Assembly (NCBI GenBank): GCA_964351165.1
Contig: CAYGNN010000001.1
Location: forward strand, 1 to 54,244
Direction of reading: 5' to 3'
Source: an uncultured Phycisphaeraceae bacterium
GTDB lineage: Bacteria > Planctomycetota > Phycisphaerae > Phycisphaerales > UBA1924
Length of the DNA: 54,244 nucleotides
Shown here: piece by piece, positions 12,481-47,452 of the stretch
Layout: each line of letters opens with the position of its first letter
Numbering within the stretch: the stretch's first letter is position 1
Program-made: the position numbers and the translations under genes
Notes under the pieces: generated by a model
Databases searched by the model: none
What the model saw: only the letters and a program-made list of their open reading frames with translations
What the model was told of the DNA's origin: nothing

Positions 12481-12502
12481 CTTCAGGATCTGTTCCGGTT
12501 CG

Positions 12503-13402: not shown

Positions 13403-14667
13403 TGCACAGGCTCCGATGCTCGGGCGCCGGCCGCGGTGCGCTGGGGCCGGTCGTTGTCGTTGGGTTTGGAAGTTGGGCCGGTGCGCACCAGCTCGCGGAT
13501 CGCCGCCGCGGCCTGCTCGCACACAACGCCCCAGTTGGTCCGGTCGGTGAAGTCCGCGAAGGCCGATCGCGCGATCGCCGCGTACTGCGCCCGGTCCTTG
13601 AAACAGGATTCGATCCGATCAGCGTACGCCGAGGGGGGCTCTTCCGGCGGGAGCGTCCATCCGGTGACGCCCTCGCGGATCGCATCCCCTGTGCCGCCGG
13701 TCCTCGTGGCGATGGAGGGCAACCCGAAGGATGACGCCTCGCAGAAGACGATCCCGTACGCCTCCGCCTGCGTGGGGAGCAGGAAGAAGTGCGACGACGC
13801 GAAGAGACCGTCCAGCGTGGCGCGCTGCGCCGGGTCGCGTTTGTCGAGGTAGCCGTGCAGCGTGACCCACGATGGCAGGTCGATTCCAGCCGGAGGCTGC
13901 ACCCCCACGATGTGCATTGCTACATCGATCCCGCGCTCGCTGAGCAGGCGCGCCGCGTCGAGCGCGATGCCGCCCCCCTTGCGTTCCCAGTCCACGCCGA
14001 CCCAGAGCAGCCGGCAGGTGTCCTCAGGGCGCGCTTCGATCAGGCGTTCGATGTCGTCCGCTGTCCGGTCGCACGCAACACCAGCGCCGCGCGAGATCAG
14101 CCGCACCTTCTCGCGGGGGAACCCATACGCGTCCGCCGCGGTGGCGCGCGCCCATTCCGATGGGAAGATCGCCATGTCGATGCGATCGAAGAGCGACTGA
14201 TCACAGGCGTGGCCGTCGCGCTCGGTGCGTGCGGAAAGGTTCGAGTACTTCGCGTAGTAGTTCAGGAGCCCTGCGAACGTGCAGTCCGTCCACAGGACCA
14301 TGGGCAGGTCCGTCCGCAGGTAGGCCAGCGGGAGACCGCCAGCGCCAAGCACGACCTGTGCATTCGATTGTTCGAGCGCCCGCTCCACCTGCCTCGCGTA
14401 ATTCCGGAGGAACCCCGGATCGCGCTGCGGGTGGTCGTTGAGCCCCCGGACCTTGGCGTTCCACAGGTACCGGAGGATGTTGATCGGGTTCCGCTGCGGC
14501 TTGAGCGGCCCGATCCGCTCGATCGTCAGCCCCGCCTGCTCCAGGCCCTCGGCCATGTGGTACCCGGTCCCGGACGCCTTGCGGATATCCCGCGAGTCGT
14601 AGGGCGACACCATCGCGACGATCAGGTTGTCAGGCTTTTCGGGATTCACCAGAGACTCAATCGGCAC
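13399..14667 (-). CDS. glycosyltransferase family 4
   Basis: GT-B signature LWVGVDWERKGG...FLLPTQAEAYGIVFCEASSFGLPSIATRTGGTGDAIREGVTGW (an EX7E-like region). The start is uncertain: GTG at 14667 gives VPIESLVNPEKPDNLIVAMVSPYD, while the ORF maximum extends to 14763. Confidence 0.8.
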   Translation of the reverse strand: MPIESLVNPEKPDNLIVAMVSPYDSRDIRKASGTGYHMAEGLEQAGLTIERIGPLKPQRNPINILRYLWNAKVRGLNDHPQRDPGFLRNYARQVERALEQSNAQVVLGAGGLPLAYLRTDLPMVLWTDCTFAGLLNYYAKYSNLSARTERDGHACDQSLFDRIDMAIFPSEWARATAADAYGFPREKVRLISRGAGVACDRTADDIERLIEARPEDTCRLLWVGVDWERKGGGIALDAARLLSERGIDVAMHIVGVQPPAGIDLPSWVTLHGYLDKRDPAQRATLDGLFASSHFFLLPTQAEAYGIVFCEASSFGLPSIATRTGGTGDAIREGVTGWTLPPEEPPSAYADRIESCFKDRAQYAAIARSAFADFTDRTNWGVVCEQAAAAIRELVRTGPTSKPNDNDRPQRTAAGARASEPVQ

Positions 14668-28008: not shown

Positions 28009-30573
28009 TCAGCGGCTCTTGCTGAAGACACGCTCCACCCGGCGTTCCGCCCGGCGGCTGCCCATCAGCACCAGCGGGTCGTCCAGCGGGCGGTCCCGGC
28101 TGATCCAGACCAGGCCGCTCAGGTCGTCGCTCGAATCGGCGATCCAGCTCTTCAGCCGCTTGATGGTCTTCGGATCATCAGCGGCGCCCAGCCCGATCTC
28201 GTGCAGCGCCGCGCCGGCCAGCTCGATGTCGTCGTCGGAACCACCGAGCCCGACAAGCTGGTACCCCAGCTCCTGCAGCCGCTCCAGGGATTCCTCGATC
28301 GATTCGGTCGTCGCCTCGTCGGCGCTCTCGTCGTGCGCGTTGATGACGAGCAGGCGGCCGATCACCGGCGCCGCAGGGGGTTCAGGGGTCTGCGCCGAGG
28401 CGAGCAGGGCCTCGCGGACACCGTCGTTGGGCGGCGCTTCGCCGGCGCGGAGCCAGGCCGGCGCCTTGATCGTAAAGGTGTTGCCCTCGTCCTCGACGAA
28501 GGTCAGGACACCCTTGTCCTCGTCGTAGATCCCTGCGTCCTCGAGCGCCTCGACGAGCTGGCCGTGCATCCCGCGGAGGCCGCCCAGTTCCTTGAGGTCG
28601 TCGAAGAGGCGCATCGCGTCCATCGACTCGCCGTTGAGGGTGAGGTTGATCTCGTCCTGCGTCGCCCGGTCGTTCGCGGCGTTCCGCGCGTCCTTGTCGA
28701 TCGCGAGGTTCACAACCGCAGCAGCGCCGCCAACGCACGCGGCGAGGAAGATGAAGAGCGCCACGGCGACGCCGGGGTTGACCTGCTTGTGGCTCTTGTC
28801 GCGCGCGCGCCGCTTGCTGTGGACCTTGTCCCTGGCGGCGTGCGCACGCTTCCGCGCCGCTGCGGCGCGGTTCCTGGCGTTGCGCAGCTGCACGTCCGCC
28901 GAGGGGCGCGAGCCGCGCGGTGTTTCCTTGTTGATCAGCGGTTCGTCGCTGCCCTCGCGCCAGGGGCGCCAGCCGTCAGCGTTGCCCTCGTCATCGACAG
29001 CAGGGCCTGCAGGACCAGCGGGGCTGGCAGGGCGGTCCGGCTTGGGAACGTACGAACCGGTCCACCAGTTCACGAGCGACAGCTTGGGCTTGGCGCGATC
29101 GCCGCTGGGCGATGCGGCAGCAGCGCCGGCTGCGGCCGCAGCAGCAGCAGGGGGGGGGACGGTCTCCGCGGCAGGACGCGCCGCAGGGCGCGGAGGCTCG
29201 GGGACCGCCTTGGGCGCGACCGGCGTGCCTGCAGCGATCGCCACGCTCGCATCGTCCAGCGTCGGGTCGTCGTGCGCCGAGGCATCGACGCCGCCCTTGA
29301 CGCTGGGCAGGTCCGCCGGCATCAGCTTGAACATGTCGTCCGCCGCGAGGACCGCTTCCAGGTCGGCGTACATCTCGTACGAGGACGCGTACCGCTGGTT
29401 GTACTCCGCCATCGAGCGGCGCACGACCCAGCGGATCGCCTCAGGGCAGCGGTTGTTCAGCAGCGACATCCCGCCGTGCGCCGGGAACTGGTTCTCCAGC
29501 AGCGAGTACAGCACGGCGCCTGTCGCATAGACATCAAACTTGGCGCCATCGACCTCGTGGACCTTCACGCCCTTGAGCGCCATGCGCACCATTTCAGGGT
29601 CGCGGAAATACTCAGTGCCGTGCGTGGTGAGCGTCATCGCGCTGCGCAGCGGCGTCACGAGGCCCAGGTCGACCAGGTGCGCCTCGCCATCGGAGACGAT
29701 GATGTTGTCCGGCTTGATGTCCTTGTGCCAGAGCCCGGCGCGGTGGTACGCGGCGATGGTCTTGAGCAGGTCGGAGACGTACCCGATCGCCTCGCGGAGC
29801 TTGGCGTCGTTCAGGCCGTTGCCCTCGGAATCCTCGTGCAGCTTCCGGCCGACCACGCCCAGGCTCTCGCCGGGGACGTAGGGCATGACGTAGTGGAAAC
29901 GGTGCTCGGTCAGCTCGTGCTCGAGGACGAGACCGATCTTCTTCGCCGCTTCGAGCGCGCGGCTCTCGCGGATGATCTGCGGCAGGCTGGAGCCGTCCTT
30001 GAGGCTGAACGACTTGATGATGACCTTGTCGATGCCTGGGGCGCCCTGCCTCGCGAAGACCGCCAGGCGCCGCTCGTCGGGTTCTGCGATGTACAGCTTG
30101 GCGCCGGAGCCGCCTGTTGGCAGCGAGCCGACGATCTTGTATCCCTCGAAGGAGCCGGTCTTGCGCGACGGCTTGTCAGCGCCAGGGACGTGCGCCATCG
30201 CCTGCGGGACGCGCTGCTCGACGCCCTCGAGCATCGGACGCAGCAGCAGCAGGCGCGCCGGGTGCCCCAGGAAGACGCGGTAGAGCGAACGGCCGAAGGC
30301 GTGCATCTCGTCCTGGATGGAGCGGCCGAAGTGCCCTGCGGCGGACCAGCGCCCGATGATGATGTTCAGGATCACGAAGGGGACGAAGACGGCCATCGTG
30401 ATGATCGCGCCCAGCGCGCGGAGCGAGTCCCCGATCACGCCGCCGATGAAGCGGAAGACGTGCGCGAACGCCATCCCGATCAGCTTGAAGGTGGGGGCGA
30501 CGATGAAGACCACGACCACGACCAGCAGCGCGATCGCTGCGGCAGCCGCCAACATTGCAAGGAGGATTGACAT
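28009..30573 (-). CDS. membrane-bound Ser/Thr protein kinase with extracytoplasmic C-terminal domain
   Basis: Three N-terminal TM segments, then Hanks kinase motifs: GSGAKLY with a downstream Lys, [14 protein letters not shown] and [10 protein letters not shown]. These are followed by a Pro/Ala- and Arg-rich linker, one more TM ([20 protein letters not shown]) and a C-terminal domain of about 220 aa with no motif I recognise. Confidence 0.85.
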
Positions 30574-30651
30574 CCCGAAACTCCTGGCCGTCCATCCGAT
30601 CGCGATCTGACCCGAGCGTGTCAGCGGAGGGCGGCGTCGTCCGTGGACCGG

Positions 30652-31410
30652 CTATTCCATCATTGCCGCCTGGTCCCGGCGCCGCAGCTCCTGCTGCGTG
30701 TGATAAATCTCGGCGATCGCCTCATCAAAGAGGGCATCGTCGGCATTGGTCGGATTCAGGGCGAGCCCATTTCGCTCCGCCTCGTCCCGCTCGTCCTCGG
30801 TGAACGAATACGTGGCGATGACCTCGCACAACTGCTCGCGGACCATGTCCCGGACCTTGCTCAGCCGGCGGCTCACGGTCGGCTCGCTGGTCCCCAGCTG
30901 CGCCGCGACCTCCTTGCCGCTGATGCATTCGAGGACCCGCATCCGGTAGATCGTGAAGTCGGTGAACTCGCAGCCGCGTTCGACGATGCGGATCGCCGCT
31001 TCCACCTTGGCGCGGAAGACCGCCGCTTCGTACTCGCCATCTGGGGATTTGGCCCCTGGATGATCGGCGTACATCCATGATTCCTCGAGATTCAGGGCCT
31101 TCACGCCCTTGCCTCGCTTGAGCGCCATCCGGCGGTCGATCTCGTCGCCCAGCGTGTGCTTGGCGATCGCGAGCAGCCACGTCGAGAACCGGGCGCCGCG
31201 GTTGGGGTCGTAGGTTTCGATCGAATTGGAGAGCGCCGCGAGGGTCTCCTGCGAGAGGTCGCGGACCGTTTCAGAGCCGATCCGCCCCTTGCCCCACTTG
31301 GAGAGTTGGGCGCGGATGACCGGGCCGAAGGTCTCCCACAACTCGAACCACGCCGCTTCGTCGCGGCATCGGAGTCGGCCGATGAAGTTGGTGGTGAGGT
31401 TGTTGAGCAT
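30652..31410 (-). CDS. ECF-type RNA polymerase sigma factor with C-terminal extension
   Basis: ATG at 31410. Region 2 (DLSQETLAALSNSIETYDPNRGARFSTWLLAIAKHTLGDEIDRR) and region 4 HTH (ISGKEVAAQLGTSEPTVSRRLSKVRDMV) are present, plus about 55 extra C-terminal residues. The upstream 72 codons of the track ORF are rejected. Confidence 0.8.
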   Translation of the reverse strand: MLNNLTTNFIGRLRCRDEAAWFELWETFGPVIRAQLSKWGKGRIGSETVRDLSQETLAALSNSIETYDPNRGARFSTWLLAIAKHTLGDEIDRRMALKRGKGVKALNLEESWMYADHPGAKSPDGEYEAAVFRAKVEAAIRIVERGCEFTDFTIYRMRVLECISGKEVAAQLGTSEPTVSRRLSKVRDMVREQLCEVIATYSFTEDERDEAERNGLALNPTNADDALFDEAIAEIYHTQQELRRRDQAAMME

Positions 31411-31651
31411 GACCGTCCTGGCCCCGATCGAAGTAGAGTCCCGACCCGTCCGATAGCCGCGCGCCCGGCCTGTGGAGGCCCGGTCTGCGGGAGCGCAACC
31501 GGCGCCCATCACCGAGGATAAGGCCAATTCCAGCATGCACAGGATACGCCCAGCGGCGCCCTGCGGCGTGTCCGGATTGTGATTTTGGGGGACGGGATCC
31601 CCCCGGACCGCCTTGTAGGGGCTCAAGAGGCGTTGCTTTCAGGACCCGCCG

Positions 31652-33863: not shown

Positions 33864-35426
33864 TTGTGTAGCCAGATAGCGGAGCTGCCAGCAGCGCCGT
33901 CGCCAGAGGTGATCCCGTTGAACGAACGGCTCCTGGAAAAGGTGCTCGACTGCCCCAAGATCCCGTCGCTGCCAGCGATCGCGCTGCAGGTGATCGATCT
34001 GACAGCGGACGAGAACATCACCATGGCGCAGCTGGCCGCCACGATCCAGAACGATCAGGGCCTCGCAGGGAAGATCCTCAAGACGGTCAACTCCGCGTTC
34101 TATGGGTTGTCCAAGCCCTGCACCACCCTCGCGCAGGCGCAGATCATGCTGGGGCTCAACGCTGTCAAGACGCTCGCCCTGGGCTTCTCCCTGGTGAAGG
34201 TGGTCAAGGACGGCGAAGAAGAATCCTTTGATTACGAGACCTACTGGCGAAGGGGCCTGTATTCAGGGATCGCCTCGCGCATCATCGCGAACTCCACGAG
34301 GGTTGCCGATCCTGAGGAAGCGTTCCTCGGCGGGCTGATGCAGGACATCGGGATGATCGCGCTCAACGCCGCGATCGGCCCTTCGTACGCGAAGCTGGTC
34401 AACAGCGTTTCCCACGAGCGGCTGCTCCGCGCCGAACTCGAAGAGATGGAGATCACGCACCCGCTCGTCGGCTCGATGCTCGGCGCCCGGTGGCGGCTCC
34501 CGGACTCGATGAAGATGTGCATCAAGCACCACGCGCAGCCCTCGACCGCGCCTCCGGAGTATGCGCAGATCGTCCAGTGCGTCGGGATCGGCAACCTCGC
34601 CGCGGCGACGCTGATGGCCGAAGACCCGGTCAAACCGATGCAGCTGTACCTCGACAAGTGCGAGCAGTGGTTCAGCATCCCGAACAAGCAGGCGGAAGAG
34701 CTCCTCGACGAGATCGTCAGGGGCGCCAAGGAAGTCTCGAAGCTCCTCGAGTTGCCAGGCGGCCAGTTCCCAGACGCCGCGGACATCATCGAGAGGGCCA
34801 ACGACCACCTCGTGGACATGGCGCTCCGCAACGATCAGGAAGTGGAAGAGGCCGCCAGGCGGAACGCGATGCTCGAGCAGGCCGTCCTCAAGGACGAGCT
34901 GACCGGCCTCGCCACGCTGCACAAGTTCACGACCGATCTGCAGGCCAGGTTCGAGACCAGCCAAGCCGATGAGGACGGCTGGTTCTCGCTGCTGATGTTC
35001 GACATCGATTCGCTGGGCGAGATCAACGACCAGCTCGGCCGCGAGGTCGGAGATCGTGTCATCAAGGGCTTCGCCGAGCAACTGGCCGCAGCCTTCGAGC
35101 CCCGGAAGAACCCGGTCGCGAGGATCGGCGGCGACGAGTTCGGCGTCATCCTCGGCGGGATCACCAAGCTGGAAGCCGCCAGGAAGGCGGAGGAATTCAG
35201 GCAGATGATCGCCGATTCGCCGCTGGAGATGTCCGGCTGCGACGCGGCGCCCGCGGAGCTGAAGATCAAGGTCAGCGTCGGCGCGACGACCCTCGATCAC
35301 GACACCGCCGAGGTCTTCACTCGGATCGAGCAACTCCTGCACGCGACAGACTCCGCGATGCGGATGGCCCGCAAGAGCGGGGGCAACTGCGTGAAGGTCT
35401 TCTCGCCCCGCCGGAAGGCGGCCTGA
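33864..35426 (+). CDS. HDOD domain / GGDEF diguanylate cyclase signalling protein
   Basis: N-terminal HDOD blocks (LPSLPAIALQVIDL, LAATIQNDQGLAGKILKTVNSAFYGL, LGLNAVKTLALGFSL). C-terminal GGDEF domain (DELTGLATL, FDIDSLGEINDQLGREVGDRVIK, ARIGGDEFGVIL). Apparent TTG start, uncertain. Confidence 0.85.
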   Translation: MCSQIAELPAAPSPEVIPLNERLLEKVLDCPKIPSLPAIALQVIDLTADENITMAQLAATIQNDQGLAGKILKTVNSAFYGLSKPCTTLAQAQIMLGLNAVKTLALGFSLVKVVKDGEEESFDYETYWRRGLYSGIASRIIANSTRVADPEEAFLGGLMQDIGMIALNAAIGPSYAKLVNSVSHERLLRAELEEMEITHPLVGSMLGARWRLPDSMKMCIKHHAQPSTAPPEYAQIVQCVGIGNLAAATLMAEDPVKPMQLYLDKCEQWFSIPNKQAEELLDEIVRGAKEVSKLLELPGGQFPDAADIIERANDHLVDMALRNDQEVEEAARRNAMLEQAVLKDELTGLATLHKFTTDLQARFETSQADEDGWFSLLMFDIDSLGEINDQLGREVGDRVIKGFAEQLAAAFEPRKNPVARIGGDEFGVILGGITKLEAARKAEEFRQMIADSPLEMSGCDAAPAELKIKVSVGATTLDHDTAEVFTRIEQLLHATDSAMRMARKSGGNCVKVFSPRRKAA

Positions 35427-35510: not shown

Positions 35511-36464
35511 TTGGAATCGGTGAATCCCACCGCACGCGCGTTGTCCTGCGCCTATTTCTCTGACCGACCGGCCACCGACCGGAGCCCTCCGCCCTTGCCA
35601 GGAACCGAGCCCCCAACCAGCAACGTTCGCGCCATCTTTGGCGAGGCGGCTCAGCGTTCGTCGATCGCGCACCCCACCCTCGACGAGTTCCACCTCACCG
35701 TGGAGGAAGCGGGCAAGGGCGAGCCGGTCGTCTTCCTGCATGGATTGCTGGGCCTGAACGAGCATTGGATCCCCGCTGTCGAGACACTCTCGAAGCGCGC
35801 CAGGTGCATCATGCTCGAGTTCCCATTGGCCGAGATCCCGCACAAGCTCTGCTCGATCGACGCGGTCACCGCGATGGTCAAGCGCGAGCTCGCCGGCCTC
35901 ATCGATGGCCCAGCGATCTACATCGGCAACTCGCTCGGCGGGCACCTCGCGCTGCGCCTGGCGCTCGATCACCCGGAGGCGGTCCGGGGCCTCGTCCTCG
36001 CCGGCTCCTCCGGCCTCTTCGAGCGCGAGATCGTGGTCGGCCGAACGGCGCAGCACCGACCAAGCCGCGACTGGCTCCAGCAGAAGATCGAAGAGCTCTT
36101 CAGCGACCCGGCGAACATCCCGGATGGGATCGTCGATCGCGTCTACAACGAACTCTCCAACCGCCGCGCCGCGCGCGCGCTGGTGCGGCTCTCTAAGAGC
36201 GCCAAGAGCGACAACCTCGCCGCCCATCTTTCCGAGATCCAGGCGCGCACGATGCTGCTCTGGGGCCGCGACGACACCGTGACGCCGCCGCGCGTCGCCG
36301 AGGAGTTCAAGGACTTCCTCCCCAACGCGTTCATCCACTGGCTCGACAACGCCGGCCACGCGCCGCAGATCGAGCAGGCCGCCGCCTTCACGAAGGCGAT
36401 CGATGATTTCCTCAGCGAGTTCGACTCCTACGACACGTCGAAACCGAGGCAGGAGGTCGCGTGA
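35511..36464 (+). CDS. alpha/beta-fold hydrolase
   Basis: VVFLHGLLGLNEHW, nucleophile elbow GNSLGG, LWGRDDTVTP and NAGHAPQIE. The start is either the TTG at 35511 or the GTG at 35520. Confidence 0.8.
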   Translation: MESVNPTARALSCAYFSDRPATDRSPPPLPGTEPPTSNVRAIFGEAAQRSSIAHPTLDEFHLTVEEAGKGEPVVFLHGLLGLNEHWIPAVETLSKRARCIMLEFPLAEIPHKLCSIDAVTAMVKRELAGLIDGPAIYIGNSLGGHLALRLALDHPEAVRGLVLAGSSGLFEREIVVGRTAQHRPSRDWLQQKIEELFSDPANIPDGIVDRVYNELSNRRAARALVRLSKSAKSDNLAAHLSEIQARTMLLWGRDDTVTPPRVAEEFKDFLPNAFIHWLDNAGHAPQIEQAAAFTKAIDDFLSEFDSYDTSKPRQEVA

Positions 36465-38104
36465 TGGGATGGACCGCCCTGATCGGGGCGGGCCTGAACG
36501 CCGGGCTCAGGCTCCGCATCGACGCGCTCAACGACACGCAGCGCTGGTCCCTCGGCGCCGGCCGGATCCAGCGCGAGCAGCTCCGCTGGCTCCTCACCCG
36601 CGCCGCGGATACCGAGTTCGGACGATCCAACGACTTCGCGCGCCTCGCGCAGCTCGATGACGACGAGATCGTCCCCGCCTACCAGCAGGCCTTCGCGATC
36701 TCCGATATCGAGGCGTACCGCGCGATGCTCGCCAGGATGCGCGAGCAGGCGGAGCCCGACCTGCTCTGGCCAGGTGTCGTGCGCAACTGGGCGCAGACCA
36801 GCGGCACCACCGCCGGCGACAAGTTCATCCCCGTCTCCGACGAGATGCTCGCGCACAACCGCAAGGCGGGCTTCGACATCTTCGCGCACTACGCGCGCCG
36901 GGGCTGCTCCCTCGCGGACCTCTTTGGCGGCAAGCTCCTCTTCCTGGGGGGCTCCACCGCCTACGACACCAACGAGCACGGCATCAACACCGGCGACCTC
37001 TCCGGCATCGTCACCCCGATGATCCGCTGGCCCATCTCCGCGGCGCACCTGCCAGGGCGCGAGATCGCGCTGATGTCCGACTGGCCTGCGAAGATCGACG
37101 CGATGGCCGAGGTCTGCCTCCGCGCCGACGTCCGCTTCATCAGCGGCATGCCCTCGTGGTCCTCCGTCCTCTTCGAGCGCATGCTCGATCTCGACCGCGA
37201 GCAGGGGGGCAGCGCAGCGACCATCCGCGACCTGTGGCCCAACCTGCGGCTCTTCGTGCATGGGGGTGTGAAGTACGCGCCGTTCGAGCCGCGCATGCGC
37301 GGGTTCTGGTCCGGTGATCCATCAGGCGATGACATCCCCCAGCGCCTGGAGGTTTATCCAGCGAGCGAGGGCTTCATCGCGATGCAGGACACCCCAGGCG
37401 ATCCAGGCCTGCGCCTGCTCACCGATCACCGCGTCTTCTACGAGTTCGTCCCGCTCGAAGAGATCGACAGCCCCGACGCGCGCGCCTTCACCTGCGAGCA
37501 GGTCGAGCGCGGTCAGCGGTACGTCGTCGTGATGAGCACCTGCGCAGGCCTCTGGCGATACATCATCGGCGATGTCGTCGAGTTCGACACGATCCCCCCC
37601 GATGGACCTCCCAGGCTGCGCATCGTCGGCCGCCACCGCCACTTCATCAACGCGTTCGGCGAGAACATCATCGTCGAGCACATCGAGAACGCCGTCGTCG
37701 AGGCGGCGCGCGCCGTGGACGCCAACATTGGCGAGTTCACCGCAGCGCCGGTGTACCCAGGGCCGAGCAACCCTGCTGGTTTGGAACTCGCGGTGGAATG
37801 GACGCCGGCGGACGCCGAACAACTGCGTGTGTTCCAGGGCGCCTTCGACCGATCGATCAAAGCGCAGAACGTCGATTACACGACCAAGCGCACCGATGAC
37901 CTGGGGATGGCGCCCCCGACGATCACGCCGCTGCCCATCGGCGCCTTGCACGACTGGATGCGATCCAAGGGCAAGCTGGGGGGCCAGCACAAGGCGCCCC
38001 GCTGCGCGAACCACCGCGACATCATCGACGGCGTGCGCGCGATCGCAGGCGTCTCCGAACACGCTTCGATGCCGCAGCACGCAGCAGCAGGGAGCGCCCG
38101 GTGA
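36461..38104 (+). CDS. GH3-family (auxin-responsive-promoter family) adenylating acyl-acid amido synthetase homologue
   Basis: GH3 motifs are QTSGTTAGDKFIPVS (P-loop-like), VYPASEGF and CAGLWRYIIGDVVEF. Its start overlaps the upstream hydrolase stop (GTGATG). Confidence 0.85.
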   Translation: MMGWTALIGAGLNAGLRLRIDALNDTQRWSLGAGRIQREQLRWLLTRAADTEFGRSNDFARLAQLDDDEIVPAYQQAFAISDIEAYRAMLARMREQAEPDLLWPGVVRNWAQTSGTTAGDKFIPVSDEMLAHNRKAGFDIFAHYARRGCSLADLFGGKLLFLGGSTAYDTNEHGINTGDLSGIVTPMIRWPISAAHLPGREIALMSDWPAKIDAMAEVCLRADVRFISGMPSWSSVLFERMLDLDREQGGSAATIRDLWPNLRLFVHGGVKYAPFEPRMRGFWSGDPSGDDIPQRLEVYPASEGFIAMQDTPGDPGLRLLTDHRVFYEFVPLEEIDSPDARAFTCEQVERGQRYVVVMSTCAGLWRYIIGDVVEFDTIPPDGPPRLRIVGRHRHFINAFGENIIVEHIENAVVEAARAVDANIGEFTAAPVYPGPSNPAGLELAVEWTPADAEQLRVFQGAFDRSIKAQNVDYTTKRTDDLGMAPPTITPLPIGALHDWMRSKGKLGGQHKAPRCANHRDIIDGVRAIAGVSEHASMPQHAAAGSAR

Positions 38105-40821
38105 TCCGCAGGCTCGCACGCTGGATGCAACGCAGGCGATGGTGGATCCTCGCCTACATCCTGCTGCTGGCCGCCTCCAACATCTTCGTGCTGATCCCCG
38201 GGACCGACGCGTGGACGCCCCCCGATTCCAGGGTCGCCGCCGGCGCCGAGCGCATCGACCTCGAAGTCCCGGCGATGCGCGATGGCGGCGCGATCCCTGA
38301 ACGCAGCACTACGGTTTCCGTGCTGCGCTGGACGCCATCGACGCAGCAAGCGAACCCCAACCCGGTCATCCTCCTGCACGGCTCCCCAGCCGGCGGCGCG
38401 ACGGACTACGCGAAGCTCGGCCCCAAGCTCGCCGAGCGCGGCTACGACACGATCGCGATCGACTTCCCAGGGTTCGGCCATTCTGACGCCTGGGTCCCCG
38501 GCTATTCCATCATCGCCAACGCGCGGTACACGCTCGCCGTTATGGACAGGCTGGGCATCGACCGCGCGCACGTCGTCGGCTGGTCACAAGGCGGCGGCAG
38601 CGCGATCTACGCGACGCAGCTCGCGCCGGAACGCACCGCGACGATGACGCTCATGGGCGCCATCGGCGTGCAGGAAGCGGAGGGCTCCGGCGATTACCAC
38701 TTCGAGCACGTCAAGTACGCGCTGGGCTACGCCGCGGTCGTCGCGCTGCCCGAATTGATCCCGCACTTCGGTTTGCTCGGCCCCCGCGGCGTCCGCCACG
38801 GGTTCATCCGCAACTTCTACGACACCGACCAGCGACCGCTCCGCGCGATCATGGAGTCGATGACGACGCCCACGCTCATCCTGCAGGGGCGCCACGACCC
38901 GCTCGTCCCGGCGTGGTGCGCCGAAGAATCCCACCGGCTCATCGGCCCAAGCCGCCTGGTCATGCTCGACGCCAGCCACTTCTTCCCATTCGGCGGCTTC
39001 ACCGGAACGCCAGAGCAGCGCGAGGCGAAGCTCAACCAGACTACGGAGCTCCTCGCGGGTTTCTTTGAACGGCACACAACGCCAGGCGTCCCGGCGCTCG
39101 TCGGGATCGCTGACTTCGCGCCGGTCGATCCAACGAAGGAGATCGGCTCGCTCGGGCCCTTCGAACTCGTTCGCGGCACACACTGGGCGGTGCTGATCCT
39201 CTTCATCATCCTCGCGACCTTCATCAGCGAGGACGCAACGGTCATCGCGGTCGGACTGCTCATCGCGTCCGGTCGCCTCGACTTCGGTGTCGGCCTGCTC
39301 GGCTGCTTCATCGGGATCACCGTCGGCGACGGCGCGCTGTACATGATCGGTCGGTTCGTCGGCCGCCCGGCGCTGCGCTGGCCCTTCGTGCGGAAGCTGC
39401 TCCCGGAGTCCTCGCTCGAACGATGGGGCCGCTGGTTCGACAAGCACACGATCGCCGCGGTCTTCATCGCCAGAGCAGCGCCAGGGACGAGGCTCCCGAC
39501 CTACCTCGCCGCCGGCATGCTCTCGCGCCGCACGCACCACTTCCTCTTCTGGGCCGGAGTTGCGGCGGTGCTCTGGACGCCCCTGCTGATGGGCATCGCG
39601 ATCGTCGCAGGCCCCAAGCTGCTCGGCGCCCTCCACGACAAGCTCGGCGGGCCGCTCTCGATCATCGTCGCGCTCGTCGTGATCCTCGTCATGGTGCGCA
39701 TCGTCATGTCGCTCTTCACGTGGACCGGGCGCCGCCGCCTGCTCGTCGGCGTGCTGAAGATCGGCCGTTCGGAGTTCTGGCCCTCGTGGGTCTTCTACAT
39801 CCCGCTGGGGTTCTACCTCGTCTTCCTCGCGATCCGGCGCGGCGGGCTGATGACGTTTACCTGCTTGAACCCCGGCGTCCCCCACGGCGGCGGCGTCGTC
39901 GGCGAGAGCAAGAAGGTCATCATCGAGGGCCTGCTCGAAGCCGGCGCGAAAGACTGGATCGTCCCGACCGAGTTCCTCGAAGAAGGCCCCTCGCCAGAAG
40001 ACCGCGCCGATCGTCTCGACGAGATCGTGCGCACCAACGAAGACTTCGGCGGCTACCCGGTCATCTGCAAGCCGGACCAGGCCCAGCGCGGCCACGGCGT
40101 GAAGCTCGCGCGCACCAAAGATGATGCGCTCGAATACTTCCAGCAGATGACCCGCGACGCCGTCGTGCAGGGGTATCACGCAGGTCCCAAAGAAGTCGGC
40201 GTCTTGTGGGCGAGGCACACCACCGGCGAGCACGCCAACGCAGGCCGTATCCTGTCGATCACGAAGAAAGAGTTCCCGGTCATCACCGGCGACGGCAAGC
40301 GGACCCTCGAACGCCTCATCTGGCGCCACCCGCGCTACCGGATGCAGGCGGACGTCTTCTGCAAGCGCTTCGACGGTCAGCTCGACCGCGTCCTCGAAGC
40401 AGGCGAGACGCTCCGCCTCGCGGAGGCAGGCAACCACGCGCAGGGGACCAAGTTCCTCGACGGCGCTGACCTCATCACCGACGAATTGACCGCACGGATC
40501 GACGCGATCGTCCGCGACTACCCAGGGGGGTTCGACTTCGGACGCTTCGATATCCGCTACGTCAGCGACGATGCCCTCCGCCGCGGCGAGCAGTTCGCGA
40601 TCATCGAACTCAACGGCACGATGAGCGAATCGTCGAACATGTACGATCCGCGCCGGTCGCTGCTGTGGACGTACGGCGTGCTCTTCACGCAGTGGCGGCT
40701 CATGTACCGCCTGGGCCATCGCCGCAGGAAGCAGGGCGTGAAGCCGATGTCGATCCCGGAGATCATCCGCATCGCGCGCGAGCACTACCACACCCGGCAG
40801 GGCTCGACGGTTTCCGATTAA
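38101..40821 (+). CDS. three-domain fusion protein: alpha/beta hydrolase, DedA/VTT membrane domain and ATP-grasp ligase
   Basis: The GTG overlaps the GH3 stop (GTGA). After an N-terminal TM segment comes a hydrolase domain (VILLHGSPAGG, GWSQGG). A VTT/DedA-like block follows (FISEDATVIAVGLLIASG...GITVGDGALYMIGRFVGRP) with further TM segments. The C-terminus is ATP-grasp-like (YPVICKPDQAQRGHGVKL...FAIIELNGTMSESSNMYDP). Confidence 0.75.
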   Translation: MIRRLARWMQRRRWWILAYILLLAASNIFVLIPGTDAWTPPDSRVAAGAERIDLEVPAMRDGGAIPERSTTVSVLRWTPSTQQANPNPVILLHGSPAGGATDYAKLGPKLAERGYDTIAIDFPGFGHSDAWVPGYSIIANARYTLAVMDRLGIDRAHVVGWSQGGGSAIYATQLAPERTATMTLMGAIGVQEAEGSGDYHFEHVKYALGYAAVVALPELIPHFGLLGPRGVRHGFIRNFYDTDQRPLRAIMESMTTPTLILQGRHDPLVPAWCAEESHRLIGPSRLVMLDASHFFPFGGFTGTPEQREAKLNQTTELLAGFFERHTTPGVPALVGIADFAPVDPTKEIGSLGPFELVRGTHWAVLILFIILATFISEDATVIAVGLLIASGRLDFGVGLLGCFIGITVGDGALYMIGRFVGRPALRWPFVRKLLPESSLERWGRWFDKHTIAAVFIARAAPGTRLPTYLAAGMLSRRTHHFLFWAGVAAVLWTPLLMGIAIVAGPKLLGALHDKLGGPLSIIVALVVILVMVRIVMSLFTWTGRRRLLVGVLKIGRSEFWPSWVFYIPLGFYLVFLAIRRGGLMTFTCLNPGVPHGGGVVGESKKVIIEGLLEAGAKDWIVPTEFLEEGPSPEDRADRLDEIVRTNEDFGGYPVICKPDQAQRGHGVKLARTKDDALEYFQQMTRDAVVQGYHAGPKEVGVLWARHTTGEHANAGRILSITKKEFPVITGDGKRTLERLIWRHPRYRMQADVFCKRFDGQLDRVLEAGETLRLAEAGNHAQGTKFLDGADLITDELTARIDAIVRDYPGGFDFGRFDIRYVSDDALRRGEQFAIIELNGTMSESSNMYDPRRSLLWTYGVLFTQWRLMYRLGHRRRKQGVKPMSIPEIIRIAREHYHTRQGSTVSD

Positions 40822-42263: not shown

Positions 42264-42683
42264 ATGCCGCGGCGGATGGAGTTATCCCGGATCCTGATCC
42301 ACGAGCTCAAGGACCATCAGCTCATCGAACTCCGCGAGGTGGAGGGCCACCGCACCTTCCCCATCATGATCGGCCTCCCGGAGGCGCAGGCCATCGAACG
42401 CCGCATGAAGGGGCAGCGCGTCAAGCGCCCGCAGACGCACGAGCTGCTCGCGAGCGTCATCGAATCGCTGGGGGGCGAGCTCGAATCCGTCACCATCTGC
42501 GACCTCTCCGAGCACACTTTCTTCGCGACGCTCGACATCCGCCTGCAGAGCAACGGCCAAGCCGGTGAGCTCCAGCACATCGACGCGCGGCCCAGCGACG
42601 CCATCGCGCTGGGCATCGCCAGCGACGCCCCCATCTATTGCGAGGAGCACGTCCTCGACGGCGCCCAGCCGGACGCGCACTGA
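42264..42683 (+). CDS. bifunctional nuclease family protein (BFN/DUF151)
   Basis: ATG at 42264 with AAGGAGA RBS. FPIMIGLPEAQAIERRMKGQRVKRPQTHELLASVIESLGG...IDARPSDAIALG is the BFN-domain signature. The upstream part of the 42015 ORF is antisense to the adaptor gene. Confidence 0.8.
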   Translation: MPRRMELSRILIHELKDHQLIELREVEGHRTFPIMIGLPEAQAIERRMKGQRVKRPQTHELLASVIESLGGELESVTICDLSEHTFFATLDIRLQSNGQAGELQHIDARPSDAIALGIASDAPIYCEEHVLDGAQPDAH

Positions 42684-42692
42684 TCCGAACCG

Positions 42693-43985: not shown

Positions 43986-44634
43986 ACAACCGCCACGCAT
44001 CATCTGTTTCGATCTTGGGGGCGTTGTCGTCCGCATCTGCGATGGCTGGGAGCAGGGCTGCGCCGCAGCAGGGCTGGACGTGCGCACAGGCGAGGTCACT
44101 CCCGACTCGATCGACGCGAAGTCCAGCATCGTCCACGACCTGACCACCGGCGCGATCGATGGCCCAGGCTTCTTCCGCGCCCTCGCCGAGGGCGTCCGCG
44201 GTCTTTATGACGAGGCGGAGTTCGAGCGCGTCCACCGCGCGTGGATCCTCGGTGAGTACGACGGCGTCGCGGAACTGATCGTCAGGCTCCGCGACCATCC
44301 CCGATGCACCGTCGCCTGCCTGAGCAACACGAATCACGTCCACTGGGAGCAGCTCCACGGCGAGGGCGGCGTGCACTACCCAGCCTTCCTGTCGCTCGAA
44401 CGCAAGCACGCCTCGCACCTGCTCCGCAGCGCCAAGCCGCACGAGAGCATCTACCGCGCCTTCGAGGAAGACCTGGGCGCCGCAGGTGATGAGATCCTCT
44501 TCTTCGACGACCGGCAGGAGAACATCGACACTGCCAACGCCATCGGCTGGCGCGCGCAATTGATCGATCCCACAACAGAGACAGCTCCGCAGATCGAAGC
44601 GGCGCTGACCGCGCACGGCATCCTGTTCAGTTGA
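43972..44634 (+). CDS. HAD-superfamily hydrolase (subfamily IA-like)
   Basis: Motif I FDLGGVV, motif II LSNTN and motif IV FFDDRQENI. It overlaps the truD end by 14 nt. Confidence 0.8.
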   Translation: MPTPEQPPRIICFDLGGVVVRICDGWEQGCAAAGLDVRTGEVTPDSIDAKSSIVHDLTTGAIDGPGFFRALAEGVRGLYDEAEFERVHRAWILGEYDGVAELIVRLRDHPRCTVACLSNTNHVHWEQLHGEGGVHYPAFLSLERKHASHLLRSAKPHESIYRAFEEDLGAAGDEILFFDDRQENIDTANAIGWRAQLIDPTTETAPQIEAALTAHGILFS

Positions 44635-47395
44635 CCTTGACGATCCCGTTCAGGCGCCCAGGGCCATCGACCTCGGTCAGCCCCACGCGGATGATCTCGC
44701 CACGCAGCCTCGTGGCGTTGCCCCGGAAGTAGAACCGGCGGATCGCAGACTCGTTGGGCGCCAGCCTGCTCACCGGGGCTGACTGCCGAGGTCTGTCGGG
44801 CGCCATCGCGTACGCCTCCAGCGACTGCGGCCGGTCGCTCAGGTTCCGGATCTGCAGCGTGACGACGACGCGGTCCTTCACCGTGTCCACGAGGACAGAG
44901 GGCAGCATCTCCAGATCGCTCAGGCCGACCTCGACATTCGATCGCAAGGTGATCCTTGGGTACGTCTTCGTCGCGGCCAGATCGACATCCAGCGACACCG
45001 GCTTTACGCCAGCGATCTCCGCGACGCCGAACGAGACCTCCGCCGGGAACCGCTGCTCAGCGCCAGGGCCGATGCTGAAGCGGTGCACCCTGGGGTTGAT
45101 CTTCCAGTCGCTCGGCTCATCCACCCGGAACCGGCCGACGATGGATGTCGGGAATGGGTTGCGGATGACGATCTCGACATCGTGCACTGTCGCGGAGGAG
45201 CGGATCAACGAAGGCTCGATGCGGAACCCGGCGTGGAACAGGATCAGCCCCGGATCTACGCCCTCGATGAAGATCGGCGAATCGGTTAATTGGATCGTGT
45301 GCAGACCATCGATCATCTCGATCGTGCGCGCGTTGCCGAAAATGTCCACGGCTTCGATATCGTCGTCGCCCAGGTGCAGGCGGATGGTCGCGTCGTCGGA
45401 CTCGGCGTTCTCGTTCCACGCGGCGATCGCGCAGCGCGTCCCGCTGGGATCGACCAGGATCTGCGCACGCACGCCGTCAACGATCGGGAGGCTGCCCGCG
45501 TAGCTCCGGCCCTTCAGGTGCTCGCCCATCGTCCGCCAGACCGCGAGGTTCGGTGAAGGATCCGCCTGCCCCGGCGCTTTGCCGGTGTGCGTCCACGGCT
45601 GGATGATCGAGAGCTGCCGAGCGCCGGCGCTCCAGGCGAGGATCGTGCGCTGCGCCAGCGCGATCGCAGCGGATTCACTGCCGTACATGCCGGCCTGGTG
45701 GGTTTCGAGGACGAACTCCGACAGCATCGCCGACGTGTGGTCTTCATCCTCAGGCTCGATCCAGCGCCGCACGAGCGCGCCGATGGAATCGTTCGGCGCT
45801 GCGATGGGGAGCATGACGCTGAAGGCGTTGCTCTCGTGCAGCCCTGGGTCGATCGTCTGGTCGGCATCCGCCGGGAGCACCCACATCGGCGACGGCGCGT
45901 ACCGGGAGAGCCGATCGAGGCTCACCGCCAGCGCCTGAGCGACGCCCTGCGTCCAGACGATGTCGCGATCTCCCGCGGCGCCCAGGCGCCACAGGTGGAC
46001 GCGCTGGCCGAACCGCGCCACCAGCGGGTCGAGCGCGATGTCCCACAGCTCGTCCCGCCCCAGCAGGTCGATCAGCCGGCGCCCGACGAGGCTCGACGCG
46101 TCGCCCTTGCCAGGCACGTCGCGCAGCGCGAACGTCGTCTGCCGGTTGTCGTCGAGGAGCTTGTCAACCGCAGGCTCGATCTCGGTGGCGATCGAGTGCG
46201 CGCTCCCGGTGTGCATCCACTCGTCCCAGACAGTGAGCGTCATCGCGCCTGCGCCGATCCGCTGCGCGATCGCCGGCAGCAGCGCCGTGCGATCGGGGGG
46301 CGTGGTCTCGGCGATCAGGCCGAACCAGCCCTGCTCGTCCTCATCGAGCAGGGGATCAACCGGCGGGACCCAGCAGTACGACACCGTGCCCTGCTGCAGG
46401 ACCACACCCTCGGCGACGATGTTGAGCACCGCCCGGCGCCAGCCGAACCCGTTGGGCTCCGGCGACCAGACGATCTCGCCGCCGCCTGGGGGCGTCGTGA
46501 TCGTGTCGCGCTGGACGACCGCGCCGGATTCATCCATGAGCGACAATTCCCCGACGAGCGAGTCGCCGGTGAGATCGCGCAGCACGAAGGTGAACTCCGG
46601 GGTTTCCGGCGCGACGAAGATATTCGTGGGTGTCGCCGAGGCGACGTCGAGCCTCGGGATGTGCCGGACCGCGACATCGTCGAACCAGACAGCGCCGCTG
46701 AGGTCCTCATCGTCCACCAGGTGCGGCTGCACGTGCGGCATCTGCAGCGCCAGATCGTCCGGCGGGAACTGCGATGGCTGGAGCAATTCCAGATCGATCT
46801 GGATCCACGCGGCGTTCGGGAAGTCGCCCTCGAGCGTCGCCTCGACCATCCGCCAGCCCTGCTCTGACTGGATCAATCCGGAGTTGGCTTCACTGCCCTC
46901 GATGACCGCGCCGTCGGCGTCGAGCAGCCTGGCGACCAGCCGACCCCTCGCGGATTGCAGGCCCTTCGTGCGCGCGAAGGCGGAGACCTGGTAGTCGCTC
47001 CCTGGGATCGCCGCGAGCACGCCGCTGACGAGGCGGGCGCTGACGCTCCCGCCGCTGGTGGGGAGCATGAACGATTCATCACCGCTGTGCGCGAACTCGC
47101 TGCTGAACGAGCTGTGGTTCCAGTTAGGGAAGCCGGGGCGTTCGCGCATGCCCTCGACATGGTGCGCACGGATCCAGTGCATCGGGACGGGGTCGAGGTT
47201 GAACGCGCGCTCGTCGAAGTCGAAGACCCGGACCACCCGGCCAGAGGCTTCAGGGCGCTCGACCTGCTGCCCATCCTGTGGTTGGGCCTCCGCCAGGTCT
47301 GCCTGCTCCGGCGCGGCGATGGCCGCTGTTGTCGCCAGCGCCGCGAGCAGCGCGGCGCCGCAGCGGGATCGGGTTGGCGCAGTGATGCCTGGCAT
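44627..47395 (-). CDS. large secreted hypothetical protein with an N-terminal CBM4/9-like beta-sandwich (tentative)
   Basis: ATG at 47395 gives a Sec signal peptide (MPGITAPTRSRCGAALLAALATTAAIAAP); a GTG alternative is at 47419. Residues about 50-200 (FDFDE...GDESFMLPTSGGSVSARL...GSDYQVSAFART...ARLLDADG) resemble a carbohydrate-binding jelly roll. I recognise nothing in the remainder. Confidence 0.6.
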   Translation of the reverse strand: MPGITAPTRSRCGAALLAALATTAAIAAPEQADLAEAQPQDGQQVERPEASGRVVRVFDFDERAFNLDPVPMHWIRAHHVEGMRERPGFPNWNHSSFSSEFAHSGDESFMLPTSGGSVSARLVSGVLAAIPGSDYQVSAFARTKGLQSARGRLVARLLDADGAVIEGSEANSGLIQSEQGWRMVEATLEGDFPNAAWIQIDLELLQPSQFPPDDLALQMPHVQPHLVDDEDLSGAVWFDDVAVRHIPRLDVASATPTNIFVAPETPEFTFVLRDLTGDSLVGELSLMDESGAVVQRDTITTPPGGGEIVWSPEPNGFGWRRAVLNIVAEGVVLQQGTVSYCWVPPVDPLLDEDEQGWFGLIAETTPPDRTALLPAIAQRIGAGAMTLTVWDEWMHTGSAHSIATEIEPAVDKLLDDNRQTTFALRDVPGKGDASSLVGRRLIDLLGRDELWDIALDPLVARFGQRVHLWRLGAAGDRDIVWTQGVAQALAVSLDRLSRYAPSPMWVLPADADQTIDPGLHESNAFSVMLPIAAPNDSIGALVRRWIEPEDEDHTSAMLSEFVLETHQAGMYGSESAAIALAQRTILAWSAGARQLSIIQPWTHTGKAPGQADPSPNLAVWRTMGEHLKGRSYAGSLPIVDGVRAQILVDPSGTRCAIAAWNENAESDDATIRLHLGDDDIEAVDIFGNARTIEMIDGLHTIQLTDSPIFIEGVDPGLILFHAGFRIEPSLIRSSATVHDVEIVIRNPFPTSIVGRFRVDEPSDWKINPRVHRFSIGPGAEQRFPAEVSFGVAEIAGVKPVSLDVDLAATKTYPRITLRSNVEVGLSDLEMLPSVLVDTVKDRVVVTLQIRNLSDRPQSLEAYAMAPDRPRQSAPVSRLAPNESAIRRFYFRGNATRLRGEIIRVGLTEVDGPGRLNGIVKVN

Positions 47396-47452
47396 GGCCA
47401 AAATATCGGCCAAAACCACGCGTTTTCTGCACGTTGCCTGTAAGAGCGCTGA

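Follow-up and report, generated by a model that had tools for sequence, protein, structure and literature searches.

The DNA analyzed here is contig CAYGNN010000001.1 (assembly GCA_964351165.1) of an uncultured Phycisphaeraceae bacterium, a stretch of 54,244 nucleotides (nt) that is called the window in its full length. Three open reading frames (ORFs) follow each other on its forward strand at positions 35511-36464, 36461-38104, and 38101-40821 and are designated genes 1, 2, and 3. They encode an alpha/beta-fold hydrolase, a GH3-type adenylating enzyme, and a membrane protein in which a second serine hydrolase domain is fused to a DedA/VTT domain and an ATP-grasp domain. The G+C content of the window is about 66%, and that of the third codon position of genes 1 to 3 was 0.88 to 0.89, the same as in the other credible genes of the window. 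A preliminary description made from the sequence alone had assigned these domains, regarded the three genes as one translationally coupled unit, and suggested a membrane-associated cycle that builds and removes an amide-linked decoration on a lipid or small molecule. All domain assignments for genes 1 to 3 were confirmed by Pfam, by profile searches, and by an AlphaFold model with a subsequent Foldseek comparison. The gene boundaries and the stop/start overlaps GTGATG and GTGA also agreed with a direct reading of the sequence.

At the first junction (36451..36466, + strand), an AGGAGG motif at 36451-36456 precedes a GTG at 36461 and an ATG at 36464 that overlap the TGA stop codon of gene 1. 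The 3' end of gene 1 reads GAG GTC GCG TGA at the GTGATG overlap, and genes 1 and 2 share 4 nt. At the second junction (38091..38104, + strand), a GGAG motif at 38091-38094 is located 7 nt 5' of the GTG start codon of gene 3 at position 38101, which overlaps the TGA of gene 2 at 38102-38104. Gene 3 ends with a TAA at 40819-40821, and the next gene is a convergent gene for an HlyD-family protein. A consensus scan revealed no sigma-70-like promoter and, between genes 1 to 3, no terminator-like site.

Gene 1 (35511..36464, + strand) encodes a soluble alpha/beta-fold hydrolase of at most 317 amino acids (aa) that matches Abhydrolase_1 (76.6 bits) and also Abhydrolase_6 of Pfam and that has no hydrophobic segment according to its hydropathy. 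Alignments with relatives begin only near residues 28 to 65 of the 317-codon ORF, which leaves the start codon uncertain. The catalytic triad consists of Ser141 in a GNSLG motif (nt 35925-35939), Asp255, and His283. In an alignment of 34 relatives, S141 and H283 were invariant, and D255 was conserved in at least 95%; this alignment contained two OlsI proteins, one above the NCBIfam cut-off and one just below, and the Ser and the His are common to both. With the OlsI model NF052614 for an ornithine lipid O-acyltransferase, gene 1 scored 75.7 bits and did not reach the equivalog cut-off of 385, with OlsI in the sixth place among the matches. Orthologues of gene 1 in related loci, which are numbered with an “L” in the following, scored 70 to 102 bits with the OlsI model, and OlsI was the top match only in L001. 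Compared directly with the true OlsI of L084, gene 1 was 27% identical over 246 aa, which is the whole catalytic domain (E 2e-14). Gene 1 is a candidate for an OlsI-like O-acyltransferase that would add a second acyl chain.

Gene 2 (36461..38104, + strand) encodes a GH3-type adenylating amido-synthetase of 547 aa. The Pfam domains GH3, GH3_M, and GH3_C (PF03321, PF23571, and PF23572) were each above the cut-off, which gives the three-part GH3 fold. Motif I is TSGTTAGDK (residues 113 to 121, nt 36797-36823), motif II is YPASE (299 to 303, nt 37355-37369), and motif III is GLWRYIIGD (363 to 371, nt 37547-37573). YPASEG had been given correctly before, but motif I has the form SGTT.G.K and not SGTT.G..K. 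All three motifs are closer to those of the published OlsH (TSGTTQGATK, YPCSE, and GMWSHLIGD) than to those of plant GH3 enzymes, and the essential Ser115 of OlsH is kept as S114. The OlsH model NF052613, named lyso-ornithine lipid synthetase, was the sole NCBIfam match of gene 2 and covered its full length (363.5 bits, E 1.6e-108). A library of cluster representatives contained 4006 GH3 relatives, and relatedness was judged from model scores and pairwise identity. One relative, P0150, was above the OlsH cut-off with 852.7 bits, and gene 2 was 36% identical to it over 510 aa (E 2e-88). This makes gene 2 a candidate OlsH-like synthetase for an N-acyl amino acid, a lyso-aminolipid. Nucleotide-binding residues, on which the preliminary description had made its proposal depend, are kept in both ligase domains, GH3 and ATP-grasp.

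The biochemistry of OlsH and OlsI was described for Singulisphaera acidiphila by Rivera-Najera et al. (J Biol Chem 2025, PMC12493201). The GH3-like OlsH uses ornithine, ATP, Mg, and a fatty acid to form N-acyl ornithine; the fatty acid is free and neither an acyl-acyl carrier protein (acyl-ACP) nor an acyl-coenzyme A (acyl-CoA). The alpha/beta hydrolase OlsI attaches the second acyl chain, olsH and olsI are invariably located in one operon in planctomycetes, and the authors expect other amino acid specificities outside the OlsH clade (PMC12493201). This work supersedes two earlier statements on the window, that no pathway had been described and that bacterial GH3 homologues were uncharacterized, since OlsH was characterized and the pair was shown to make ornithine lipid in 2025. 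The predicted amide-linked decoration of a lipid with an amino acid was judged to be right, with genes 1 and 2 as an OlsI/OlsH-type module.

As in Singulisphaera, the GH3 gene of the window is located directly downstream of an alpha/beta hydrolase gene on the same strand, the nucleotide motifs and the essential Ser are kept, and the phylum is Planctomycetota; the class, Phycisphaerae, is different. Locus L084, which encodes P0150, contains olsI (427.5 bits), olsG, and olsH and has the same hydrolase-then-GH3 order, but there is no olsG methyltransferase gene between genes 1 and 2, and unlike L084 and the described pathway, the window has a third, translationally coupled gene. A 2026 review lists OlsH homologues for Isosphaerales and Gemmatales and not for Phycisphaerae (PMC12971839). 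Judged from the sequences, the hydrolase-GH3 pair is a new, divergent member of a pathway known since 2025, and the OlsHI-type module is thereby extended to Phycisphaerae. Genes 1 and 2 would work like OlsI and OlsH on an unspecified amino acid, albeit outside the families that NCBIfam curates as equivalogs.

Gene 3 (38101..40821, + strand) encodes a three-domain inner-membrane protein of 906 aa. The full-length AlphaFold model had a predicted local distance difference test (pLDDT) value of 83, and an alignment of 22 sequences, to which the following statements on conservation refer, had a mean column identity of 59%. An Arg-rich tail, MIRRLARWMQRRR, precedes an N-terminal membrane anchor at residues 13-31 (38137..38193, + strand), which was assigned from hydropathy, charge count, and the helix 13-31 of the model and in which Y19, L22, L23, and S26 are nearly invariant. 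The serine hydrolase domain at residues ~50-325 (38248..39075, + strand) was recognized by Abhydrolase_1 (91.7 bits, residues 87-297) and has the invariant triad Ser162 (GWSQGG), Asp266, and His293. A Foldseek search with the full-length model returned generic esterases only, among them the membrane-anchored phospholipase PlaF (6i8w). A linker modeled with low confidence leads to the DedA/VTT membrane domain at residues ~360-540 (39178..39720, + strand), with the Pfam VTT match at 381-497, model helices between 362 and 537, and a VTT_dom score of 51 to 54 bits at a Pfam cut-off of 33.9. E377, D378, G409-D410, R418, R458, P461-G462, R464, and P466 are conserved in this domain. The acidic and basic residues of the re-entrant loops, E377, D378, D410, R458, and R464, are invariant and presumably correspond, by motif, to residues of the YqjA E39, D51, R130, and R136 type.

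A putatively cytoplasmic basic loop and a Pro/aromatic-rich hydrophobic helix follow at residues 541-579 (39721..39837, + strand; model helices 541-555 and 562-579), with positive charges on both flanks and with E558, W560, Y566, and P568 invariant. The helix 562-579 is probably interfacial and unlikely to span the membrane. According to cysteine accessibility, Escherichia coli YqjA has a periplasmic N-terminus and a cytoplasmic C-terminus. This topology, together with the positive-inside character of the N-terminus of gene 3, indicates that the hydrolase domain should be periplasmic and the ATP-grasp domain cytoplasmic, where ATP is available.

The ATP-grasp carboxylate-amine ligase domain at residues 582-906 (39844..40818, + strand) was identified by profile search and by AlphaFold plus Foldseek. 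Pfam CPSase_L_D2 yielded 19.8 bits with the isolated domain, exactly at the cut-off of 19.8, and 17.2 bits with the whole protein, and a single-sequence search of the PDB with the C-terminal domain gave marginal matches only. A profile of residues 575-906 and 16 relatives matched cyanophycin synthetase among the PDB sequences with an E value of 3.7e-5, and all other matches were ATP-grasp proteins. The model of this domain had a pLDDT of 87 and a predicted template modeling score (pTM) of 0.85. With this model, Foldseek found 499 PDB matches at E<=1e-3, and all 50 listed matches were ATP-grasp enzymes; CphA1 (7wae, E 3.7e-11) was on top, followed by CphA2, the ATP-grasp half of GshAB, and D-Ala-D-Ala ligases, with E values from 4e-11 to 1e-8. 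K657 (VICKPD), the R663-G664 loop, R815, D817, E836, and N838 (ELN) are invariant and are, by motif, the predicted ATP/Mg-binding residues; we take R815, D817, E836, and N838 to be the equivalents of R255, D257, E270, and N272 of Ddl.

The domain shares its fold with the G domain of cyanophycin synthetase, with Ddl, and with the C-terminal domain of GshAB, and like these it possesses a KP lysine strand, a Gly-rich loop, and Mg/ATP residues of the R-x-D and E-x-N type. It is, however, only about 15 to 20% identical to these enzymes, is tethered to a membrane domain, and has a reduced N-terminal subdomain with a family-specific invariant NPG...GGG.VGESK motif that differs from CphA, Ddl, and GshAB. 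The cyanophycin synthetase model TIGR02068 gave 24 bits over the ATP-grasp core only, compared to a cut-off of 850, and the three-domain architecture of CphA is absent. Public annotation does not contain the ATP-grasp domain, and the precomputed domains of Pfam miss it in the long and in the short form of the protein (see below), which leaves the ATP-grasp domain of several thousand proteins unrecorded in public annotation.

More than 1300 relatives of gene 3 were found in the first protein search. The 120 listed were all full-length, and the top relatives came from Phycisphaerales and Phycisphaeraceae metagenome-assembled genomes. A short form of about 545 aa with the DedA and ATP-grasp domains and without the hydrolase domain aligns to residues 366-906 of gene 3 with 44% identity; examples are located at 112-1953 in L101, 9806-11668 in L103, and 7001-8668 in L165 to L167. 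A search with the short form yielded more than 3000 relatives, and most of the 120 listed were short forms annotated only as DedA/VTT. As indicated by these alignments, the DedA and ATP-grasp domains are the conserved core, called the fusion here, and the hydrolase domain is an optional addition. Relatives of the fusion were present in 410 scanned species-level genomes, and 80 of these 410 hits were inspected as loci. A metagenome scan seeded with distant fusions gave 351 relatives, of which 80 loci were kept.

Immediately upstream of the fusion, most lineages possess a DinB_2 gene (~170-200 aa) and a TANGO2/PF05742 gene (~250 aa), for instance, at 6730-7998 in L001, 8621-9950 in L066, 8716-9962 in L145, and 5704-7004 in L165. 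The stop and start codons of DinB_2, TANGO2, and fusion genes often appear to overlap, even where all other neighbors differ. The TANGO2-like protein starts with Met-Cys and has an NRDE motif. Human TANGO2 has been reported as an acyl-CoA binding protein and also as a putative Cys-Ntn hydrolase; the context of a bacterial lipid locus, which links bacterial TANGO2 homologues to a lipid pathway, may bear on this function.

Of the 57 genome loci whose upstream sequence extended over 5 kb or more, 31 had a GH3 gene within 6 kb, 22 had only a DinB_2 and/or a TANGO2-family gene directly upstream of the fusion, and 4 had neither GH3 nor DinB_2/TANGO2. In about 30 related loci, the hydrolase-GH3 junction was tight with -8 to +12 nt and a single exception of +39 nt; the TANGO2-fusion junction was similarly tight with -7 to +16 nt. 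The distance from GH3 to the next gene ranged from -4 nt to 2.2 kb. A possible 4-nt overlap of GH3 and fusion genes also occurs in L004, L007, and L051, and in other lineages the gap measures 24 to 150 nt or is occupied by DinB2 and TANGO2. The hydrolase-GH3 pair and DinB2-TANGO2-fusion are two separately conserved modules that are merely juxtaposed in the window. This means that the three-gene unit of the preliminary description is not indivisible. Neither DinB2 nor TANGO2 had a match anywhere in the window; the window and a few relatives lost both genes, so that GH3 directly abuts the fusion. Co-conservation of the three genes held in part: the fusion often occurs without GH3, and in this case another type of aminolipid synthase adjoins.

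The genes around the locus encode a protein kinase, an extracytoplasmic function (ECF) sigma factor, RecO, an HDOD-GGDEF protein, genes 1 to 3, HlyD, TruD, and a haloacid dehalogenase-like (HAD) hydrolase, and the same order is found in Phycisphaerales chromosomes such as OZ245745. The locus occupies a housekeeping chromosomal position and is not a mobile island. The adjacency of GH3 and fusion had been considered as proof of a functional link but was downgraded, because the unrelated RecO, GGDEF, TruD, and HAD genes are just as syntenic. Since adjacency within the clade of the window is weak evidence, the argument rests instead on loci with rearranged contexts.

For this purpose, the count was restricted to loci flanked by no less than 4 kb of upstream and 3 kb of downstream sequence. 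Of the 45 species genomes, 33 had an Ols-type synthase within 6 kb of the fusion, as did 18 of the 23 metagenome contigs, which gives 51 of 68 loci. The type depends on the lineage, being OlsHI-like, OlsF-like, or OlsBA-like, and position and orientation vary. GH3 plus hydrolase is the adjoining synthase in one clade, to which the window belongs. In Phycisphaerae lineages without a nearby GH3, the module adjoins the gene of a 598- to 629-aa protein with an LPLAT acyltransferase and an OlsB-type Acetyltransf_5 domain, and the top NCBIfam match of this protein was OlsF over the full length (405 to 416 bits). The OlsF-like gene is convergent and just downstream of the fusion in L060, L066, L068, L074, and L165, divergent and upstream in L048 and the metagenome loci L095 and L136, 2.3 kb away in L062, and overlaps the stop codon of the fusion downstream in L133. 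About 30 of the 80 kept metagenome loci have the tightly packed, co-directional order olsB-like, olsA-like, DinB2, (TANGO2), and fusion, and the scanned genes had OlsB (131 to 143 bits) and OlsA (134 to 157 bits) as top NCBIfam matches. In L101 and L166, the hydrolase-GH3 pair is located downstream of the fusion instead of upstream. The GH3 protein of L101 is a true OlsH equivalog with 695.6 bits, and its hydrolase is near the OlsI cut-off (375 versus 385 bits). Three non-homologous systems for one product class thus occur in varied arrangements beside one accessory, which suggests the shared product as the common factor. The simplest reading of this association is that the fusion deals with the aminolipid product.

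The locus is probably a membrane aminolipid locus of the ornithine-lipid type, with a divergent OlsI/OlsH pair and with gene 3 as an accessory that acts on the lipid product. The genes, their domains, catalytic residues, and fold, and the neighborhood association with three types of synthases were observed, and the topology and the substrate of gene 3 and each of its chemical steps are inferred. By homology to the Singulisphaera enzymes, the GH3 enzyme would form an N-acyl amino acid, onto which the gene 1 enzyme, likewise by homology, would esterify a second fatty acid. In the mechanism favored for gene 3, the membrane-tethered cytoplasmic ATP-grasp domain would form an acyl-phosphate and give the head group a second amide bond; in this reaction an amine or amino acid would be joined to the free alpha-carboxylate, or the side-chain amine would be acylated. 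The structural relatives closest to this domain are ATP-grasp ligases that form peptide bonds; cyanophycin synthetase activates the C-terminal carboxylate of its chain, and the free alpha-carboxylate of an aminolipid is the chemical analogue. The DedA domain would move the aminolipid to the periplasmic leaflet, and the anchored periplasmic serine hydrolase domain may transfer or remove an acyl group. Gene 3 would act on the lipid whichever synthase made it.

Evaluation of this assignment needs to consider several points that weigh against it. Genes 1 and 2 remain below the equivalog cut-offs (75.7 versus 385 and 363.5 versus 620 bits), and several unrelated alpha/beta hydrolase models match gene 1 as well as or better than OlsI. 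The nearest named relatives of the DedA domain are undecaprenyl-phosphate transporters (UptA NF052604, 45 bits, with the cut-off of 250 not reached); the E. coli DedA model of NCBIfam gave 34 bits. Nothing points to the carboxylate or the amine that the ATP-grasp domain uses, and a literature search found no lipid data for organisms carrying gene 3. The assignment also offers no explanation for DinB2 and TANGO2, which elsewhere are the most tightly linked partners of the fusion and which the window lacks. An Ols gene is absent from the 6 kb around the fusion in 17 of the 68 well-flanked loci, and with RecO, GGDEF, TruD, and HAD equally syntenic in the clade of the window, the adjacency there may be inherited order and not the result of selection.

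With a hydrolase domain placed outside and ligases inside, the same proteins may also run a salvage or repair cycle, in which the periplasmic hydrolase deacylates aminolipids or phospholipids of the outer leaflet, the DedA domain brings the lyso-lipid or fatty acid back to the inner leaflet, and GH3 and ATP-grasp rebuild the lipid. The logic is that of LplT/Aas of E. coli and is near the “build and remove” idea of the preliminary description, which received no support from any analysis run. Such a cycle would account for the free fatty acids that OlsH needs and that have no other assigned source, and it would fit with the phospholipase A PlaF, a membrane-anchored enzyme, among the structural matches and with the TANGO2-like partner, which has the N-terminal Cys and the NRDE motif of a putative Cys-Ntn hydrolase. 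Synthases of the OlsF and OlsBA types, however, draw on acyl-ACP and do not require free fatty acids, and the association holds for them to the same degree; many relatives of the fusion, moreover, have no hydrolase domain. In addition, no ATP-grasp enzyme is known to activate long-chain fatty acids. Salvage is an improbable explanation.

Genes 1 and 2 may alternatively make an N-acyl amino acid that is not a membrane lipid, for instance, a signaling compound or surfactant with a head group other than ornithine, which gene 3 would tailor and export. The GH3 score below the OlsH cut-off would be in agreement with this, as would the continuum of families formed by bacterial GH3 proteins and the other amino acid specificities expected outside the OlsH clade by the OlsH authors. 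The conserved housekeeping position of the locus, which is not a variable biosynthetic island, argues against such a product, and so does the partnership of the fusion with a true OlsH plus OlsI in L101 and with OlsF- and OlsBA-like genes that best match ornithine-lipid enzymes, so that this possibility was given little weight. It is very unlikely that the fusion is a general envelope factor without a connection to aminolipids, for example one that has a Ddl-like ligase and handles a peptidoglycan precursor or undecaprenyl phosphate, and merely stands beside the GH3 pair: UptA and E. coli DedA as top named matches of the DedA domain, Ddl among the structural neighbors of the ATP-grasp domain, the position of the gene behind ftsW-murG in L057, the co-syntenic housekeeping flanks in the clade of the window, and the quarter of well-flanked loci without an Ols neighbor are outweighed by an Ols synthase in 51 of 68 loci, from three non-homologous systems in at least five arrangements, by 45 bits with UptA at a cut-off of 250, and by the single occurrence of the ftsW-murG context. 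A cell wall role had also been followed up separately and was rejected, because ftsW-murG appeared only once and a recurrent radical-SAM neighbor was an RlmN-like rRNA methyltransferase, a housekeeping enzyme. The aminolipid assignment explains the association with three synthases better than any of these three alternatives.

In the window, the HDOD-GGDEF gene, of the diguanylate cyclase type, is located at 33864-35426 on the + strand, the same strand as gene 1, and 85 nt separate its end from the most upstream start that gene 1 could have; its synteny extends to most relatives. The window (28009-31626, - strand) and its relatives have genes for an ECF sigma factor and a Ser/Thr protein kinase upstream of the locus, and zf-HC2 anti-sigma genes follow the fusion or GH3 in other lineages. 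The kinase, sigma factor, and zf-HC2 genes of the relatives are at 1-663 in L165, 1-363 and 11088-11336 in L166, and 1-91 and 8650-8889 in L167. These neighbors suggest that the locus is regulated by envelope stress. In L056 from Leptospirales, DinB2 and the fusion occur without TANGO2 and are followed by a co-directional gene with an adenylate/guanylate cyclase domain (12495-13940); the unclassified bacterium of L078 has the same DinB2-fusion layout with a similar-sized ORF of 474 aa at the same position (12740-14164).

A redox-type cluster stands beside the DinB2-TANGO2-fusion module in at least 13 loci. Its members are a protein in which a Rieske domain is fused to a ferric-reductase-like membrane domain, an unannotated protein with a length of ~250 to 270 aa, an AhpC/Redoxin protein, and sometimes DoxX, and together they may form a hydroxylase or desaturase system for lipids. 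Examples are found at 5708-8146 in L058, 6064-7880 in L153, and 2292-5707 in L165; in L016 and L017, the cluster is located between GH3 and DinB2 (6500-8400). Farther downstream in the window, a gene for a BFN-domain (bifunctional nuclease-like) protein was found by tblastn at 42276-42690 (+ strand) just upstream of truD; the end of the ORF called for the convergent HlyD gene overlaps with it. An ORF of 930 aa at 44627-47419 (- strand) has a gene-like codon G+C content and no Pfam match at E<=0.001.

Ornithine-type aminolipids contain no phosphorus, take the place of phospholipids when phosphate is limiting, and influence the tolerance of stress and antibiotics. The known routes of their synthesis are three, OlsHI, OlsF, and OlsBA. 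Modification of these lipids offers a chemical parallel to the reaction proposed for the ATP-grasp domain. Cerilipin of “Gluconacetobacter cerinus,” the name used in the review, arises by ATP-dependent transfer of taurine to the carboxyl group of ornithine lipid, and its gene is unknown according to the review (PMC12971839). An amide bond on the free carboxylate of ornithine lipid is the type of reaction that an ATP-grasp enzyme encoded beside Ols genes could perform; another amine may be used in Phycisphaerae, should the reaction occur there. These lipids also exist with di- and tripeptide head groups, and the passages of the review that were consulted do not identify the enzymes that build them; nor does the review mention a flippase, a DedA protein, or a transport step for ornithine-type lipids (PMC12971839). 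Literature searches on DedA with ATP-grasp, on aminolipids of Phycisphaerae, and on ATP-grasp in lipoamino acid synthesis found nothing relevant, and as far as these searches reach, the fusion and its DinB2/TANGO2 partners are undescribed. Tentatively, the DedA-ATP-grasp protein, here with a periplasmic hydrolase domain, may combine a flippase with a ligase dedicated to aminolipid head groups and thereby fill an unassigned step of ornithine-lipid metabolism. This step may be an ATP-dependent amidation of the head-group carboxylate of the cerilipin type or the formation of di- or tripeptide head groups plus export to the outer leaflet. If true, the nearly constant TANGO2-like partner would provide a bacterial, lipid-centered handle on the disputed function of human TANGO2.

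The membrane part of gene 3 resembles the DedA lipid transporters UptA/PopT, YqjA, DedA, and TMEM41B/VMP1, among which UptA/PopT are undecaprenyl-phosphate flippases and TMEM41B/VMP1 eukaryotic scramblases. The VTT score exceeds the Pfam cut-off, the alignment extends over almost all of the UptA model, and both re-entrant loops have kept their acidic and basic residues. In contrast to these transporters, the domain is far below all equivalog cut-offs and sits between a hydrolase and an ATP-grasp domain, an arrangement for which the literature searches gave no description, and its genomic partners are aminolipid synthases and not cell wall genes. A comparable combination is known from MprF, in which an aminoacyl-phosphatidylglycerol synthase is fused to a flippase and which is accompanied by separate periplasmic hydrolases of the AcvB/VirJ type. 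MprF and the fusion would have in common a cytoplasmic enzyme that attaches an amino-acid-derived group to the lipid head group, a lipid translocation domain, and an outer-side hydrolase. They share no homologous domain. MprF uses aminoacyl-tRNA and not an ATP-grasp ligase, its flippase is not a DedA protein, and its lipid is phosphatidylglycerol. A lipid-transporter domain and an amide-forming ligase in one protein, encoded beside three types of synthases, are a concrete candidate for one of the missing steps of aminolipid modification or transport.

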